From NCBI GenBank assembly GCA_034678605.1, contig JAXDBQ010000039.1, positions 1,172 through 65,171 on the forward strand: a DNA stretch of 64,000 nt, written 5' to 3'. Under the pieces are notes generated by a model. It made no database searches, had not been told where the DNA came from, and saw nothing but the letters and a program-made list of their open reading frames with translations. Shown here one piece after another: positions 1 to 18,375 of this stretch. A program made the position numbers and the translations under genes. Numbering within the stretch: position 1 is the stretch's first letter; every line of letters starts with the position of its first letter. Origin of the DNA: Patescibacteria group bacterium. GTDB taxonomy: Bacteria; Patescibacteriota; Minisyncoccia; Minisyncoccales; UBA5738.

Positions 1-888
1 GGCGGCGGCGGAGTGGCGTTTTGGACCGCGTTGAAGCTGTTGCGCGACGAGCAGTTCAAAAATGTTTTGGTGATGGCCGCGGAAAAATTGGTGGACAACC
101 GCGCCGAAGCGACCACGGATTATATTTTGTCGGCGGCCGAGCGGGTGATCGAACAGCCCGAAGGGCTTTTGTTTCCGGCGCAAAACGCGCTGGTGTTCCA
201 GCAGTACCAAAAAAAATACGGCGGCACGCACGAGGATCTGGAATTGATCGCGTTCAAGAACCATCAAAACGCGGTTGCCAACCCCAAGGCCTATTATTAT
301 CAGCGGTCGGTGCCGATGGAAAAAATAAAAGATTCGCCGATCGTGGCCGAGCCGCTGCGGCTTATGGATTGCTCGCTGTCGGTGAACGGCGGGGCCGCCG
401 CCATCATTTCAAAAGAACAGACCGATATCGAAGTTATCGGTTCGGGATTTGCCACGGATTATATTTTGACTTTCGAAAGGGAAGACCTCACTCATTTCAA
501 GGCCACGCAACTGGCGGCCAAAAAAGCATTTGAAATGGCGCAGTTAACACCCGACGATATCAATGTGGCCGAAGTGCATGACGCGTTCACATCGGTGGAG
601 TTGTTGTCGTATGAAGATCTGGGATTCGCGCAACCGGGCAAGGGCGGGGAGTTGATCCGTTCCGGAAAAATAAATATGGGCGGCGCAATGCCGGTGAATC
701 CTTCGGGCGGGCTCAAAGCCAAGGGCCATCCGATTTCGGCCACCGGCTTGGCGCAAATTTACGAGATCGCCAACCAGTTGCGCGGCAAATGCGGCGCGCG
801 CCAGGTGCCGGATGCAAAAATCGGCCTAACGCACAACATCGGCGGCGCCGGCGGCAGCGTAACCGTCCATATATTCAAGAAAAATTAA
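1..888 (+). CDS. Thiolase-superfamily acetyl-CoA C-acyltransferase, archaeal/SCP-x-like type (5' end outside window)
   Basis: The frame is open from base 1 to TAA at 886-888. C-terminal thiolase signatures are visible: AEVHDAFT, NPSGGLKAKGHPISATG, HNIGGAGG. A hairpin plus T-run follows at 911-944. Confidence 0.85.
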   Translation, partial: GGGGVAFWTALKLLRDEQFKNVLVMAAEKLVDNRAEATTDYILSAAERVIEQPEGLLFPAQNALVFQQYQKKYGGTHEDLELIAFKNHQNAVANPKAYYYQRSVPMEKIKDSPIVAEPLRLMDCSLSVNGGAAAIISKEQTDIEVIGSGFATDYILTFEREDLTHFKATQLAAKKAFEMAQLTPDDINVAEVHDAFTSVELLSYEDLGFAQPGKGGELIRSGKINMGGAMPVNPSGGLKAKGHPISATGLAQIYEIANQLRGKCGARQVPDAKIGLTHNIGGAGGSVTVHIFKKN

Positions 889-910
889 TTTTTTGGTTTG
901 CGGATCAAAA

Positions 911-944
911 ATTACACAGGTTCCACCTGTGTAATTTTGTTTTG
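911..944 (+). terminator. Intrinsic terminator after the thiolase gene
   Basis: attacacagg / cctgtgtaat forms a 10-bp stem with a 5-nt loop, followed by tttgtttt. Confidence 0.7.
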
Positions 945-1041
945 GGCGCGATATAAAAAGAGAAAAAACCAACACTAGTTCCAAAAAAATTTTAAAATTT
1001 GGTTAAAGTTGTTGGTTCAATAGGCGGTCGCGAGACACACA

Positions 1042-1509
1042 CTAGAATGCCGGGCGCACAGAACCGCTACTCACGCCGGTCGGAAAGACTTGGGTCTCAA
1101 TCTGTTCCAGCGTGGAAGCGATCCGGGTGGCAGCGTCGGCGAATATTGATCTTTGGCGCCTCATGGTCATGCCGCTCTGGGATCTCAGATTTCTGGTAAC
1201 GAATCCAGTCATGGCTGCGGTTCGGGCTGGTGCGAGCAGAGCAGAGAAGCGATGAGAGATTTCAGCAGATCTTACTATTAAATAGTCCTCCATGTAGTCG
1301 GCCAAAGCCAGCAGATTGCAGAATAGTCCATCAAATGATACAGATCTTATTCTAGATCCAAAGCCAATTCTCCCCCCGTTATTCAAGCGTGCGTCGGGTG
1401 GAGCGGCTAATCCGATTGGCAGCGCGATAGCAACAATAGCATCTTTGTTGATCTTGAGGACCAGTAGGAGTGCTATCAAAGAAGATGCCAATATCAGAAG
1501 GTTTATCAT
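1042..1509 (-). CDS. Hypothetical membrane-anchored protein
   Basis: ATG at 1509 (MINLLILASSLIALLLVL, an N-terminal TM helix) is preceded by a strong SD, aaggaggt. I recognise no family. The upstream extension to 1575 in the ORF track is unlikely. Confidence 0.5.
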   Translation of the reverse strand: MINLLILASSLIALLLVLKINKDAIVAIALPIGLAAPPDARLNNGGRIGFGSRIRSVSFDGLFCNLLALADYMEDYLIVRSAEISHRFSALLAPARTAAMTGFVTRNLRSQSGMTMRRQRSIFADAATRIASTLEQIETQVFPTGVSSGSVRPAF

Positions 1510-16166: not shown

Positions 16167-16187
16167 TTTGTGGTAAAATGGAAGGGT

Positions 16188-16730
16188 ATGGCGGAAGATA
16201 AAAAATACAATATAATTGAGTTTGAGGAACTGGAATCGACCAATGCCAGGGCAAAAGAATTGGCCGGTCAAGGCGCGGCGGCATGGACGGTGGTGACGGC
16301 CATTCGGCAGACCGGCGGTTATGGCCGCAAGGGCAATATTTGGGTCTCGCCCGCGGGCGGGTTGTATTTTTCGGCGGTTTTGCCCAAGAGCAATGTGGCG
16401 GATTTGCAGATTTTGACGATCTTGGCGGCGTTTTGCGCGGCCAAAACAATAAAGGAAAATTGCGGCATTGAGCCGTTCGTAAAACTGCCCAACGATGTTT
16501 ATATCAACGGCAAAAAAGTTTGTGGGGCGCTCACGGAGAATGTTATTTTGGGCGATGAAATTCTGTCGGTGATCGGCATCGGCGTGAACACCAATGTCGA
16601 AACATTCGCCGGAGAATCGGCGGGCGCCACTTCGTTGAAGATCGAATCGGGGCAAACCATTGACAATCGCGCGCTTTTGGAGCAGATTATAGAGCAACTG
16701 AAGAATGTGTTCAAAGAAATCAGTAATTAA
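16188..16730 (+). CDS. birA: Biotin--[acetyl-CoA-carboxylase] ligase, short form without HTH
   Basis: ELESTNARAKELA, RQTGGYGRKGNIWVSPAGGLYFS (GRGRxGRxW-type loop), KLPNDVYINGKKVCGALTE. Confidence 0.8.
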   Translation: MAEDKKYNIIEFEELESTNARAKELAGQGAAAWTVVTAIRQTGGYGRKGNIWVSPAGGLYFSAVLPKSNVADLQILTILAAFCAAKTIKENCGIEPFVKLPNDVYINGKKVCGALTENVILGDEILSVIGIGVNTNVETFAGESAGATSLKIESGQTIDNRALLEQIIEQLKNVFKEISN

Positions 16731-16824
16731 AAAAGTTAAAAGCGTAAAGCGAAAAGCGTAAAGCAAGAATGCGGCTTTGTATTTTTACTTTGCGTTTTGC
16801 ACTTTTAGTTTTGCGCTTAATATT
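16731..16824. repeat. Word-hairpin family B (gtaaagcg/gcaaagcg words), full hairpin
   Basis: aaaagcgtaaagcgaaaagcgtaaagcaagaatgcgg | ctttgtatttttactttgcgttttgcacttttagttttgcgc. Confidence 0.8.
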
Positions 16825-18375
16825 ATGAATTTTCAAAAAGAAATCGAGCAATTAAACGATAATCTGGCGGCCTTGGAAAGTTCCGAAGCCGCGGAAAAAC
16901 AGCATCAAAAAGGAAAAATGACCGCGCGCGAGCGGGTTTTGGCGTTGTTGGACGCCGAATCGTTCGTGGAGCTGGACGCGCTGGCCGAAACCCGGTTTTC
17001 GCAACTGGGATTGGACAAAAAGAAAGCCGCCGGCGACGCGGTGATCGCGGGGTTCGGCAAGATCAACAATCGGCCGGTTTGCGTTTATTCGCAGGATTTC
17101 ACCAAGGTGGGGGGCGGCTCGCTGGGCGAGATGCATGGAAAAAAGATCGTCAAGATCATCGAGCAGGCGCGCAAAACCGGCTGTCCGGTGATCGGCATCA
17201 TCGATTCGGGCGGGGCGCGCATCCAGGAGGGGGTGGCCAGTTTGGACGGATACGCGGGAATTTTTAACGCCATGGTCAAGGCCTCGGGCGTGGTGCCGCA
17301 AATTTCGGTGATCGCGGGGCCGTCGGCCGGCGGGGCGTGCTACGCGCCGGGGTTGTCGGATTTTGTTTTTATGATGGATAATATCTCGCAAATGTTTATC
17401 ACCGGGCCGGAAGTGATCAAAAAAGTGATCGGCGAAGAAGTGAGTTTTGACGCGCTGGGCGGCGCGACGGCGCATTGCGCCAAATCCGGTTGCGCCCAGT
17501 TTCGTTTTACCAACGAAAAGGATTGTTTTGCCGGCGTGAAAAAACTTTTGGGTTATTTGCCGCAAAACAATTTGGACGACGCGCCGCGGTCAAAAAGTTT
17601 GTTGGCTGAATTGTTCGAGAAAGAGGATAGCGCCAAGCTTTCCGACATTGTACCCGAAGAGGAAACCAAGGGTTATGATATGAAAATCGCGATCGACGAA
17701 ATCGCCGATAACAATTCGTTTTTTGAGATCCAGCCGGAATTCGCGGCTAACGCGATCACCGGGTTGGCGCGGTTGGGCGGCAATGTCGTGGGCATGGTGG
17801 CCAACCAGCCCAAGGCGATGGCCGGCGTTTTGGACATTGATTCGTCGGACAAAATATCTCGGTTTGTGCGGTTTTGCGACTCGTTCAACATTCCGCTGGT
17901 AAATTTGGTGGACACTTCCGGCTATTTACCGGGAACCAATCAAGAGCATGGCGGTATCATCCGCCACGGGGCCAAGGTTTTGTATGCCTATGCCGAGGCC
18001 ACCGTGCCCAAGATCAGCGTGATCTTGCGCAAGGCGTTCGGCGGCGCCTATATCGCGCTGGCCAGCCGCGCTTTGGGTTATGACCGGGTTTTGGCCTGGC
18101 CGGGAGCGCAAATCGCGGTGATGGGGCCGGCGCAGGCGGCTAAGATCATTTACCATCGGGAGATCGCCGCGGCCAAAGATTCGCAGAAGGTTGAAGCCGA
18201 ATTTGCCGAAAAGATTCGCGAATTCAATGATCCGTTTTCCGCGGCTAAATTGGGGCAGGTGGACATGGTGATCAATCCCAAAGATACCCGGACGATTTTG
18301 ATCAAACTTTTGGAATCGTTGTTGACCAAGCGCGAGGAAAAGGTGCAGCGGAAGCACGGAAACACCCCATTATAA
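16825..18375 (+). CDS. Acyl-CoA carboxylase carboxyltransferase subunit (PccB / methylmalonyl-CoA carboxyltransferase 12S type)
   Basis: KMTARERVLALLD, VIAGFGKINNRPVCVYSQDFTKVGGGSLGEMHGKKI, PVIGIIDSGGARIQEG, PQISVIAGPSAGGACYAP, RKAFGGAYIA. Confidence 0.9.
   Translation: MNFQKEIEQLNDNLAALESSEAAEKQHQKGKMTARERVLALLDAESFVELDALAETRFSQLGLDKKKAAGDAVIAGFGKINNRPVCVYSQDFTKVGGGSLGEMHGKKIVKIIEQARKTGCPVIGIIDSGGARIQEGVASLDGYAGIFNAMVKASGVVPQISVIAGPSAGGACYAPGLSDFVFMMDNISQMFITGPEVIKKVIGEEVSFDALGGATAHCAKSGCAQFRFTNEKDCFAGVKKLLGYLPQNNLDDAPRSKSLLAELFEKEDSAKLSDIVPEEETKGYDMKIAIDEIADNNSFFEIQPEFAANAITGLARLGGNVVGMVANQPKAMAGVLDIDSSDKISRFVRFCDSFNIPLVNLVDTSGYLPGTNQEHGGIIRHGAKVLYAYAEATVPKISVILRKAFGGAYIALASRALGYDRVLAWPGAQIAVMGPAQAAKIIYHREIAAAKDSQKVEAEFAEKIREFNDPFSAAKLGQVDMVINPKDTRTILIKLLESLLTKREEKVQRKHGNTPL

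Follow-up and report, generated by a model that had tools for sequence, protein, structure and literature searches.

Fatty acid synthesis on coenzyme A (CoA) esters has been reconstituted for Sulfolobus acidocaldarius, where a ketothiolase (Saci_1121) with its DUF35 protein (Saci_1120) is combined with a FabG-type short-chain dehydrogenase/reductase (SDR, Saci_1104), a MaoC dehydratase and an MDR-type enoyl-CoA reductase (MDR, medium-chain dehydrogenase/reductase) (Schmerling et al. 2024, bioRxiv 10.1101/2024.07.05.601840). Neither candidate phyla radiation (CPR) bacteria nor DUF362 proteins are mentioned in that work. Here, we analyzed a stretch of 64,000 nucleotides from a Patescibacteria group bacterium (GenBank assembly GCA_034678605.1, contig JAXDBQ010000039.1, positions 1,172 to 65,171 of the forward strand), referred to as the window in the following. 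Its first 18 kb carry an operon with a thiolase, a fusion of a DUF35-like with a DUF362 domain, homologues of FabG, FabZ and FabK, PlsC-family acyltransferases and a biotin-dependent carboxylase. From its gene content, we consider it fairly probable that this module is a CoA-based fatty acid synthase (FAS) independent of acyl carrier protein (ACP), a hybrid in which an archaeal thiolase/DUF35 unit is joined to bacterial FabG, FabZ and FabK and feeds PlsC.

CPR/Patescibacteria are mostly portrayed as incapable of producing membrane lipids of their own. Incomplete sets of FAS genes without ACP have been recognized as a puzzle in this clade (PMC7242380; PMC12281837). Probst et al. (2020, PMC7242380) described FAS-II homologues without the ACP machinery in some Nealsonbacteria and left an ACP-independent route open as a possibility, with no thiolase being named. 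For the cultured Minisyncoccus archaeiphilus, Nakajima et al. (2025, PMC12281837) reported AccC, FabK, FabG and a FabA-like gene (MNSC_05930-05970) whose role 'remains unclear'. Their supplement lists a thiolase (MNSC_05910) and a DUF362 protein (MNSC_05920) directly upstream of FabG as well as a PlsC (MNSC_05960), and the eggNOG match of MNSC_05920 includes COG1545 (PMC12281837). The operon of both reports is the same as the one in the window. COG1545 is the COG of DUF35 proteins. FAS genes without ACP have already been noted in these bacteria, the condensing pair has not; in the limited literature that could be searched, we found no paper proposing a thiolase/DUF35 condensing pair in Parcubacteria or Patescibacteria, which is no proof of novelty. 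Beyond the two papers, the present analysis adds the pair of thiolase and DUF35/LarA-like protein, its co-inheritance and the loss of ACP-docking residues.

Gene content of the operon and comparison with described systems

The source genome comprises 1.0 Mb in 50 contigs and is 99.1% complete with 1.28% contamination. It encodes GyrA, a bacterial-type LeuRS and a histidine kinase and is bacterial, and its proteins have their closest homologues in entries labelled Paceibacterota, Minisyncoccales, Parcubacteria or Nealsonbacteria. The small-genome, CPR-like bacterium assumed in the first-pass annotation is hence indeed a member of the CPR/Patescibacteria.

Genes were called from an open reading frame (ORF) listing together with Pfam and NCBIfam scans of the window, and every gene listed by the first-pass annotation was recovered at about the place given there. 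Its description of 18 kb of lipid genes on one strand holds for the listed lipid genes, all of which lie on the forward strand, but not for a DUF359 gene and an ORF (1042-1575) on the reverse strand or for a non-lipid island at 12116-16166. The thiolase is of the archaeal/SCP2 type, and the window holds the C-terminal 295 of its 380 aa (1..888; Pfam Thiolase_C_1, 2e-47), the full gene (L001:917-2059, 380 aa) starting 254 nt before the window edge. It is followed by the DUF35-like/DUF362 fusion P0001 (340 aa, 2590..3612), in which Pfam recognizes DUF362 only and DUF35 was assigned by fold, a FabG-type SDR 3-ketoacyl reductase (3726..4511; TIGR01830, 1.2e-88) and a cyclopropane-fatty-acyl-phospholipid (CFA) synthase (4548..5765; Pfam CMAS, 2.8e-88, and NCBIfam). 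A FabZ-like dehydratase is fused to a FabK-like flavin mononucleotide (FMN) enoyl reductase (5867..7393; Pfam FabA and NMO, TIGR01750 and TIGR03151), with the FabZ domain spanning residues 1 to approximately 145 and carrying the motif GHF...PGV...E. Next come a stand-alone FabK-type enoyl reductase (7498..8439; TIGR03151, 1.3e-103) and two PlsC-family acyltransferases, the first at 8445..9107 (Pfam Acyltransferase, 4e-25; HX4D at residues 43-48) and the second, 47% identical to it, at 9228..9890 (Pfam; HX4D at residues 42-47). The carboxylase consists of the biotin carboxylase AccC (9994..11568; TIGR00514, 4e-156), a biotin carboxyl carrier protein (BCCP, 11535..12095; Pfam Biotin_lipoyl, 8e-16, and NCBIfam) and a single-chain acyl-CoA carboxyltransferase (CT) of the PccB/MmdA type (16777..18375; Pfam Carboxyl_trans, 3e-169; TIGR01117, 6e-205, below cut-off), and is accompanied by a biotin-protein ligase with the BirA catalytic domain and no helix-turn-helix domain (16170..16730; TIGR00121, 1.6e-40, above cut-off). 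The DUF359 protein on the reverse strand (1848..2357; Pfam DUF359, 3.5e-26) is a homologue of the archaeal GTP-dependent dephospho-CoA kinase, the enzyme that completes CoA synthesis.

As in S. acidocaldarius, ACP and AcpS are absent, an archaeal/SCP2-type thiolase stands with a DUF35-fold partner and a FabG-type SDR, and CoA esters are the presumed substrates. In contrast to that system, the dehydratase is of the FabZ and not the MaoC type, the enoyl reductase is an FMN-dependent FabK and not an MDR enzyme, and the DUF35 domain, from a short and divergent subfamily, is fused to DUF362 of LarA-like fold. Furthermore, biotin carboxylase, BirA and PlsC are part of the operon here, which belongs to a CPR bacterium with ester lipids. 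With bacterial type II FAS, the operon shares FabG, FabZ and FabK homologues with their catalytic motifs, a biotin-dependent carboxylase and PlsC, but it lacks ACP, AcpS, FabD, ketoacyl-ACP synthases and PlsX, has a single PccB-type carboxyltransferase chain, and its FabG is devoid of the ACP-docking arginines. The third relative is the thiolase/HMG-CoA synthase/DUF35 complex of Methanothermococcus thermolithotrophicus (PDB 6ESQ/6ET9), with which a homologous thiolase (7e-53) and a DUF35-fold partner are shared. Here, however, HMG-CoA synthase (HMGCS) and HMG-CoA reductase (HMGR) are missing, the thiolase carries HDAF in place of HDCF, its partner is joined to a DUF362 domain, and the gene context is FAS-like rather than isoprenoid.

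Absence of the carrier-protein machinery

Canonical FAS genes were searched for with Pfam models in all six frames of the whole genome at E<=1, a search that gave matches in control genomes. In the source genome, no PP-binding/ACP, AcpS, FabD, ketoacyl synthase (KAS) or KAS III was found. A custom ACP hidden Markov model (HMM), built from E. coli AcpP and seven ACPs of same-order genomes and run unfiltered on all ORFs of at least 40 aa, reached a best E-value of 1.4. Queries with E. coli PlsX, FabH, FabD, AcpP and FabF had no match in the genome; the E. coli FabG query recovered the FabG of the window at 3e-58. The thiolase had been named as the only condensing enzyme, and neither the window nor the genome holds an ACP, KAS or FabD. 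The search for acpP, acpS, fabD, fabH and fabF/B elsewhere in the genome came out in favor of an ACP-free module, and ordinary type II FAS is ruled out, as ACP, AcpS, FabD, FabH, FabF/B and PlsX are all lacking in the genome.

The same picture was obtained from related genomes. ACP was not found in any of the 13 genomes of the genus, and since one of these is a single contig, a gap in the assembly does not account for its absence. Of 201 evenly sampled genomes of the order, 60 carry the fusion, and 59 of these lack ACP; the remaining one (G207) has a PP-binding match, and one other fusion-positive genome has a weak KAS match of 22 bits. Two single-contig genomes with the fusion (G272 and G304) are without ACP, and 1.0 Mb of cluster neighborhoods from 73 related loci contain no ACP, FabH, FabD, FabF or PlsX. 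The match in G207 is an 82-aa PP-binding ORF (C6, 6643-6837; L015) with a WDSLGHL-type motif, which is unlike AcpP.

At this point, it has to be considered that an ordinary FAS with a carrier protein may be present, its ACP, transacylase and ketosynthase having diverged beyond recognition or being unrelated to known ones. Small proteins diverge fast, several ORFs without family lie near the cluster (e.g., 1042-1575 and 18433-18879), and the weak PP-binding ORF of G207 is located in a fusion-positive genome. However, ACPs and KAS are readily detected in other genomes of the same order, AcpS is missing as well, and no conserved small ORF accompanies the operon in the 73 loci. The loss of ACP-docking arginines in FabG, discussed below, also argues against a hidden carrier, which we regard as quite unlikely.

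The FabG of the window keeps the catalytic residues Ser138/Tyr151/Lys155. At the positions of E. coli Arg129 and Arg172, which we take to be the ACP-docking residues, it has Asn and Phe, and across the four divergent members compared, this FabG included, these positions hold Asn/Ser and Phe/Leu. Docking of ACP by two FabG arginines was reportedly described by Zhang and colleagues in 2003 in J Biol Chem. Judged by these substitutions, FabG has lost its ACP-docking arginines, a sign of CoA- rather than ACP-based chemistry.

The thiolase and its DUF35-like partner

The first-pass annotation had called the thiolase archaeal-type, and the best NCBIfam models, PRK06064 and the M. thermolithotrophicus acetyl-CoA acetyltransferase model, are indeed both archaeal. 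The best matches in the PDB were 7yvy_A (5e-64) and 6esq_A (7e-53), and SCP2-thiolase, BbsB (7pxp) and PhlC were matched as well. Thiolases that pair with DUF35 proteins, namely 6esq, BbsB and PhlC, are thus among the nearest solved relatives. The putative catalytic triad is Cys85/His278/His328, with the motif HDAF and not HDCF.

In the fusion protein, residues 1 to approximately 90 comprise a Zn-ribbon (C5, C8, C19, C22) and an OB domain with the DUF35 fold, followed by a DUF362 domain of LarA-like fold at residues ~94-337. C5, C8 and C19 are invariant and C22 is nearly so in the homologue alignment, and conserved beta-strand residues follow. A profile of the N-terminal domain searched against PDB sequences had a sole, marginal match (6htj_A, E 0.15). 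With the AlphaFold model of residues 1-122 (pLDDT 72), the top 21 Foldseek matches were all DUF35 proteins (E ~1e-3, TM ~0.5), with ChsH2, BbsA, PhlB, the M. thermolithotrophicus DUF35 protein, Trf, MucB and Shy among the DUF35 matches. VIA-align superimposed residues 1-83 of the full-length model on DUF35 proteins with Z-scores of 6.3-6.9 and an rmsd of 2.4-2.9 Å. Residues 94-337 matched LarA-family racemases with Z-scores of 15.6-17.4 and an rmsd of 3.1-3.4 Å over ~200 residues (Foldseek E 4e-7), and the model of the full-length fusion has a pLDDT of 90.8. The annotated fusion of a DUF35 Zn-ribbon/OB protein to DUF362 therefore stands by fold in both Foldseek and VIA-align and by the predicted complex described below, whereas the Pfam DUF35 HMMs fail to recognize it.

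LarA-type nickel-pincer chemistry was considered for the DUF362 domain and is made unlikely by the absence of the cofactor-synthesis protein LarC (PF01969), for which neither the genome nor 20 relatives gave a match, with LarB and LarE not being searched for. The LarA-like domain is probably a scaffold or substrate-binding module rather than a nickel-pincer enzyme.

The predicted complex of the thiolase with the N-terminal domain had an ipSAE of 0.75, compared to 0.00 for the best control; among 80 solved complexes 58 attained the mark for a complex, among 110 mismatched pairs 2. The runs agreed in at least 92% of the contacts at a partner pLDDT of at least 72, and the predicted interface uses the conserved partner residues V42, I44, T46, H49, Y54, W67 and K70. 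Because homologous complexes are solved, the score shows likeness and not binding. On the basis of these models, we propose that the fusion would serve as a partner or scaffold of the thiolase.

A thiolase/DUF35 pair could also feed a mevalonate pathway, the alternative raised in the first-pass annotation. The nearest outgroup thiolases (37-40% identity) sit in mevalonate operons of the type HMGR-HMGCS-thiolase-DUF35, and the genome has a type-1 isopentenyl diphosphate (IPP) isomerase (idi, window 53979-54557) and UppS (G000 C27 3094-3909). However, neither HMGCS and HMGR nor a mevalonate kinase, phosphomevalonate kinase or decarboxylase was found in the genome, and CPR-type HMGR, HMGCS, GHMP kinase and decarboxylase queries taken from related operons matched only the thiolase, idi and UppS. 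The sequence upstream of base 1, where an HMGCS had been suspected, holds an MNT nucleotidyltransferase/HepT toxin-antitoxin pair instead. In addition, the three mevalonate-operon thiolases have HDCF, and the FAS-operon clade has HDAF; as HDAF is frequent in other thiolases too, the motif is not diagnostic. With HMGCS, HMGR, kinases and decarboxylase absent and a toxin-antitoxin pair upstream, a mevalonate role is ruled out, and we leave it next to no probability. The toxin-antitoxin pair (HepT being a HEPN protein; L001 278-920) overlaps the start-codon region of the thiolase, and upstream of it 277 nt remain before the contig end. In the genome, idi and UppS occur without mevalonate genes, and IspH was found in none of the 13 genus genomes.

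Conservation and evolutionary placement of the operon

All 228 homologues of the fusion come from Paceibacteria-type sources. In the order sample, the thiolase was present in 57 genomes, every one of which also has the fusion (57/57), and presence was consistent within families (e.g., 4/4, 5/5 and 5/5). An even class-wide sample contained the fusion in only 2 of 151 genomes, and the trait is therefore confined to part of one order. The related genomes are not independent, so that the co-occurrence counts of thiolase and fusion do not serve as a statistical test. When species-representative genomes were scanned, 73 loci were obtained, among them the complete chromosomes CP179887.1 and OZ246399.1, and since the same operon order is kept in these 73 species-level genomes, the arrangement is not due to chance. 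The plan reads [CarS-like, FakA/DegV, UppS, PlsY], thiolase, (antisense DUF359), fusion, (BioY), FabG and (CFA synthase), followed by FabZ or FabZ-FabK, FabK, PlsC (one or two copies), AccC, BCCP, BirA and CT. The CFA synthase is found in 10 of the 73 loci, DUF359 occupies the same position in 35 related loci, and of the 47 loci with PlsC, 42 also have AccC.

The thiolase directly adjoins the fusion in 21 loci, only DUF359 lies between them in 27, and other short stretches do so in 10, so that both genes are adjacent or parted by DUF359 alone in 48 of 58 loci. In 15 loci the thiolase is lacking, 12 of which are cut by contig ends. In the window, the gap between the two genes amounts to 1.7 kb. 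It includes an AT-rich spacer (888-1848) with a 177-aa ORF without family on the reverse strand (1042-1575, from the ORF listing), and as no such stretch occurs in relatives, it is possibly an insertion. An ApbA-like ketopantoate reductase precedes the thiolase in some relatives.

Across Paceibacteria, the thiolase is 72-90% identical, the fusion only 44-68%. In a library clustered at 50%, thiolase identity falls from 50-54% (P0241 and P0243) straight to 43% or less. A quick maximum-likelihood tree (IQ-TREE with SH-aLRT support; unrooted, the midpoint root serving for drawing only) unites the FAS-operon thiolases in one long-stemmed clade with an SH-aLRT of 100. P0241, P0243 and P0250 are sister to this clade and the L094 group follows next, all of them within a grouping that includes mevalonate-operon thiolases. 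The nearest outgroups (L091-L093) are bacterial contigs with T4SS-pilin and sigma-70 genes that carry archaeal-style HMGR-HMGCS-thiolase-DUF35 operons.

Two of the sister thiolases occur in an informative context. The relative of P0241 (L095) has the order FabA-like, thiolase and a DUF35/DUF362 fusion that shares 30% identity with P0001, with AccC alongside. P0250 (L096, 5088-7763) is encoded in the order FabA-like, stand-alone DUF35-like protein, thiolase (42% identity) and SDR, beside GcvH, on a contig that carries histone-fold and aIF5A-type genes and is probably archaeal, as judged from these genes. Its DUF35-like protein matched the profile of the subfamily of the fusion's N-terminal domain (A2) in hhalign with a probability of 99.8 and E 6e-28. 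From these two contexts, the pair of thiolase and short DUF35 recurs together with FAS-like partners, both in bacteria and, probably, in an archaeon. The L096 cluster may be an archaeal counterpart of the operon, or it may be a route to octanoate for lipoylation.

A different context is found in L094 (5001-8272), where the thiolase and a 192-aa DUF35-like protein of the same subfamily stand with enoyl-CoA hydratase (ECH), 3-hydroxyacyl-CoA dehydrogenase (3HCDH) and pyruvate:ferredoxin oxidoreductase (POR), a CoA-type and butyrate-like set. This related pair lends some weight to the idea that the operon serves fermentative reverse beta-oxidation, as a butyrate-type redox sink, or beta-oxidation instead of membrane-lipid synthesis, since a butyryl-CoA route likewise consists of thiolase, reductase, dehydratase and enoyl reductase. 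However, the operon is tied to PlsC and to an ATP-consuming carboxylase with BirA, often also to BioY, CFA synthase, CarS, UppS and PlsY. Its enzymes are of the biosynthetic, R-specific FabG/FabZ/FabK type and not Hbd/Crt/Bcd-Etf, and the genome has no acyl-activating enzyme for degradation. A fermentative or degradative role is accordingly very unlikely in our view.

Proposed pathway and lipid supply

The ACP-independent, archaeal-style FAS suggested by the first-pass annotation is supported, with the search for canonical FAS genes and that for a mevalonate pathway both turning out in its favor. In such a synthase, an acetate-CoA ligase encoded at another place in the genome would supply acetyl-CoA, and the thiolase, held by the DUF35-like domain of the fusion, would carry out the Claisen condensation that lengthens an acyl-CoA by two carbons. 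FabG would then reduce the 3-keto group, the FabZ domain would dehydrate, and FabK would reduce the enoyl-CoA. The two PlsC-type acyltransferases would load the finished acyl-CoA, whose chain length we infer, onto glycerol-3-phosphate, and a CarS-like CTP transferase, a CDP-alcohol transferase, a glycosyl-diacylglycerol synthase and the CFA synthase would finish or modify the lipids. The DUF359 protein, a putative dephospho-CoA kinase, may support CoA supply; it is a weak homologue of the NCBIfam model deph_CoA_kin_Thcocales (2.9e-20, below cut-off).

The extender would most likely be malonyl-CoA, made by AccC/BCCP/CT with BirA at the expense of ATP, with decarboxylation driving the condensation. 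Alternatively, acetyl-CoA could serve as extender and the reaction be pulled by channelling to FabG, as in Sulfolobus. The fixed position of the carboxylase in the operon, with AccC in nearly all PlsC-containing loci, argues that malonyl-CoA is consumed, and if so, the thiolase complex would be a decarboxylative condenser without precedent.

Lipid-consuming genes of the genome comprise the two PlsC, the CFA synthase, the CarS-like CTP transferase, a CDP-alcohol phosphatidyltransferase and the glycosyl-diacylglycerol synthase-like gene. Genomes like the source carry two PlsC copies, several PlsY-bearing relatives carry one, and two copies without PlsY fit one paralogue acting as the glycerol-3-phosphate acyltransferase. 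With no PlsY or PlsX in the genome, the second PlsC-family protein is a candidate for this role.

Remodelling or elongation of short or medium acyl chains scavenged from the host or community, instead of synthesis from acetyl-CoA, would make use of the same genes. FakA/DegV and PlsY lie directly beside the operon in many relatives, Minisyncoccus has a long-chain acyl-CoA synthetase (PMC12281837), and field lipid data suggest that CPR lipids come from neighbors (PMC7242380). In the source genome, however, neither DegV/FakB, FakA nor PlsY was found, and its only AMP-forming ligase is the acetate-CoA ligase (877 bits, above cut-off), so that no known route for the activation of exogenous fatty acids (FadD, FakAB-PlsY or Aas/acyl-ACP synthetase) is present. 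The genus repeats this pattern, with no DegV in 13 of 13 genomes, no long-chain acyl-CoA ligase in the genome or genus, and FakA/B, PlsY and PlsX lacking in both. A complete elongation cycle with a carboxylase is, moreover, what de novo synthesis needs, and remodelling would in any case proceed by the same cycle without ACP. The relatives may use salvage alongside synthesis; for the window, we judge remodelling unlikely. We rank it, like the divergent carrier, reverse beta-oxidation and mevalonate explanations, below an ACP-free FAS.

Nevertheless, several points weigh against a CoA-based, ACP-free synthase. The Pfam DUF35 models (PF12172 and PF01796) had no match at E<=1 in the fusion or the whole genome, and in three loci no thiolase is encoded although the upstream sequence extends over more than 6 kb. 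The neighboring FakA/DegV and PlsY of the relatives count here as well, and no GpsA-type glycerol-3-phosphate dehydrogenase exceeded the Pfam cut-off in the 13 genus genomes. Condensation of acetyl-CoA by a thiolase is endergonic, and the use of malonyl-CoA by this thiolase class is without precedent. In Sulfolobus, malonyl-CoA use was argued against and was disproved for the tested thiolase Saci_1114 (bioRxiv 10.1101/2024.07.05.601840). The proposal presupposes that FabG, FabZ and FabK act on esters of CoA and not of ACP, and a carrier protein may be too divergent to be recognized. The HDAF motif was also tried as a marker of a decarboxylative mechanism and was not upheld, being common in unrelated or non-FAS thiolases and present in PDB 7yvy.

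A bolder version of the ACP-free FAS would see the thiolase and the DUF35/LarA-like fusion as a new decarboxylative condensing enzyme on CoA esters, supplied with malonyl-CoA by the operon carboxylase and replacing KAS, ACP and FabD, in an ACP-free synthase common to CPR bacteria and DPANN-like archaea. The latter part builds on L096, where DUF35-like, thiolase, FabA-like and SDR genes are clustered and genes for histone and aIF5A lie on the same contig. We put this version forward tentatively, as possible but doubtful. If true, a synthase shared by CPR and DPANN would bear on the origin or transfer of ester-lipid synthesis across the lipid divide.

With the thiolase and its dedicated DUF35/LarA-like partner, co-inherited with FabG, FabZ, FabK, PlsC and the carboxylase in 73 species, a candidate condensing enzyme can now be named. 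If the ACP-free reading is true, the operon would encode the first ACP-independent fatty acid synthase in bacteria, an archaeal-bacterial hybrid, and would explain how such CPR bacteria can make their own membrane lipids. It would further give a function to a subfamily of DUF362 proteins and shed light on minimal lipid synthesis and the lipid divide. For this clade, the statement of the first-pass annotation that CPR bacteria generally lack de novo lipid synthesis is too general. The same genes (MNSC_05910-05970) occur in a cultured species that parasitizes a methanogenic archaeon, which makes an experiment feasible. The lipids available from a methanogenic archaeal host are isoprenoid ethers and not fatty acids.

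Further features of the window and related loci

Downstream of the operon, a glycosyl-diacylglycerol synthase-like glycosyltransferase is encoded on the forward strand (20626..21834; Pfam MGDG_synth; NCBIfam diglucosyl-diacylglycerol synthase, 6e-43, below cut-off). By its family, it is a putative downstream consumer of diacylglycerol and is associated with the module rather than a core part of it. The non-lipid island at 12116-16166 is a restriction-modification/Bro island of ~4 kb with a GC content of 0.40, containing a RadC-like/Dcm cytosine methylase fusion, a HaeII-type restriction endonuclease, Vsr and Bro-N. This low-GC island splits BCCP from BirA, which are adjacent in relatives.

The CarS-like gene of the window (30318-30896) is a homologue of the archaeal CDP-archaeol synthase at 131 bits, just below cut-off. 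Genes for geranylgeranyl reductase, polyprenyl synthase and members of the PcrB/GGGPS family adjoin the operon in some relatives (L002 18588-21038; L038, L054, L060 and L085). By their families, these genes give hints of archaeal-type lipid genes in these bacteria. Other archaeal-flavored or unusual genes of the window are DUF763 (46946-48157), an ELP3-like radical-SAM protein on the reverse strand (49615-51246) and a fusion of a nucleotide kinase with a dCMP/cytidine deaminase (55358-56398).

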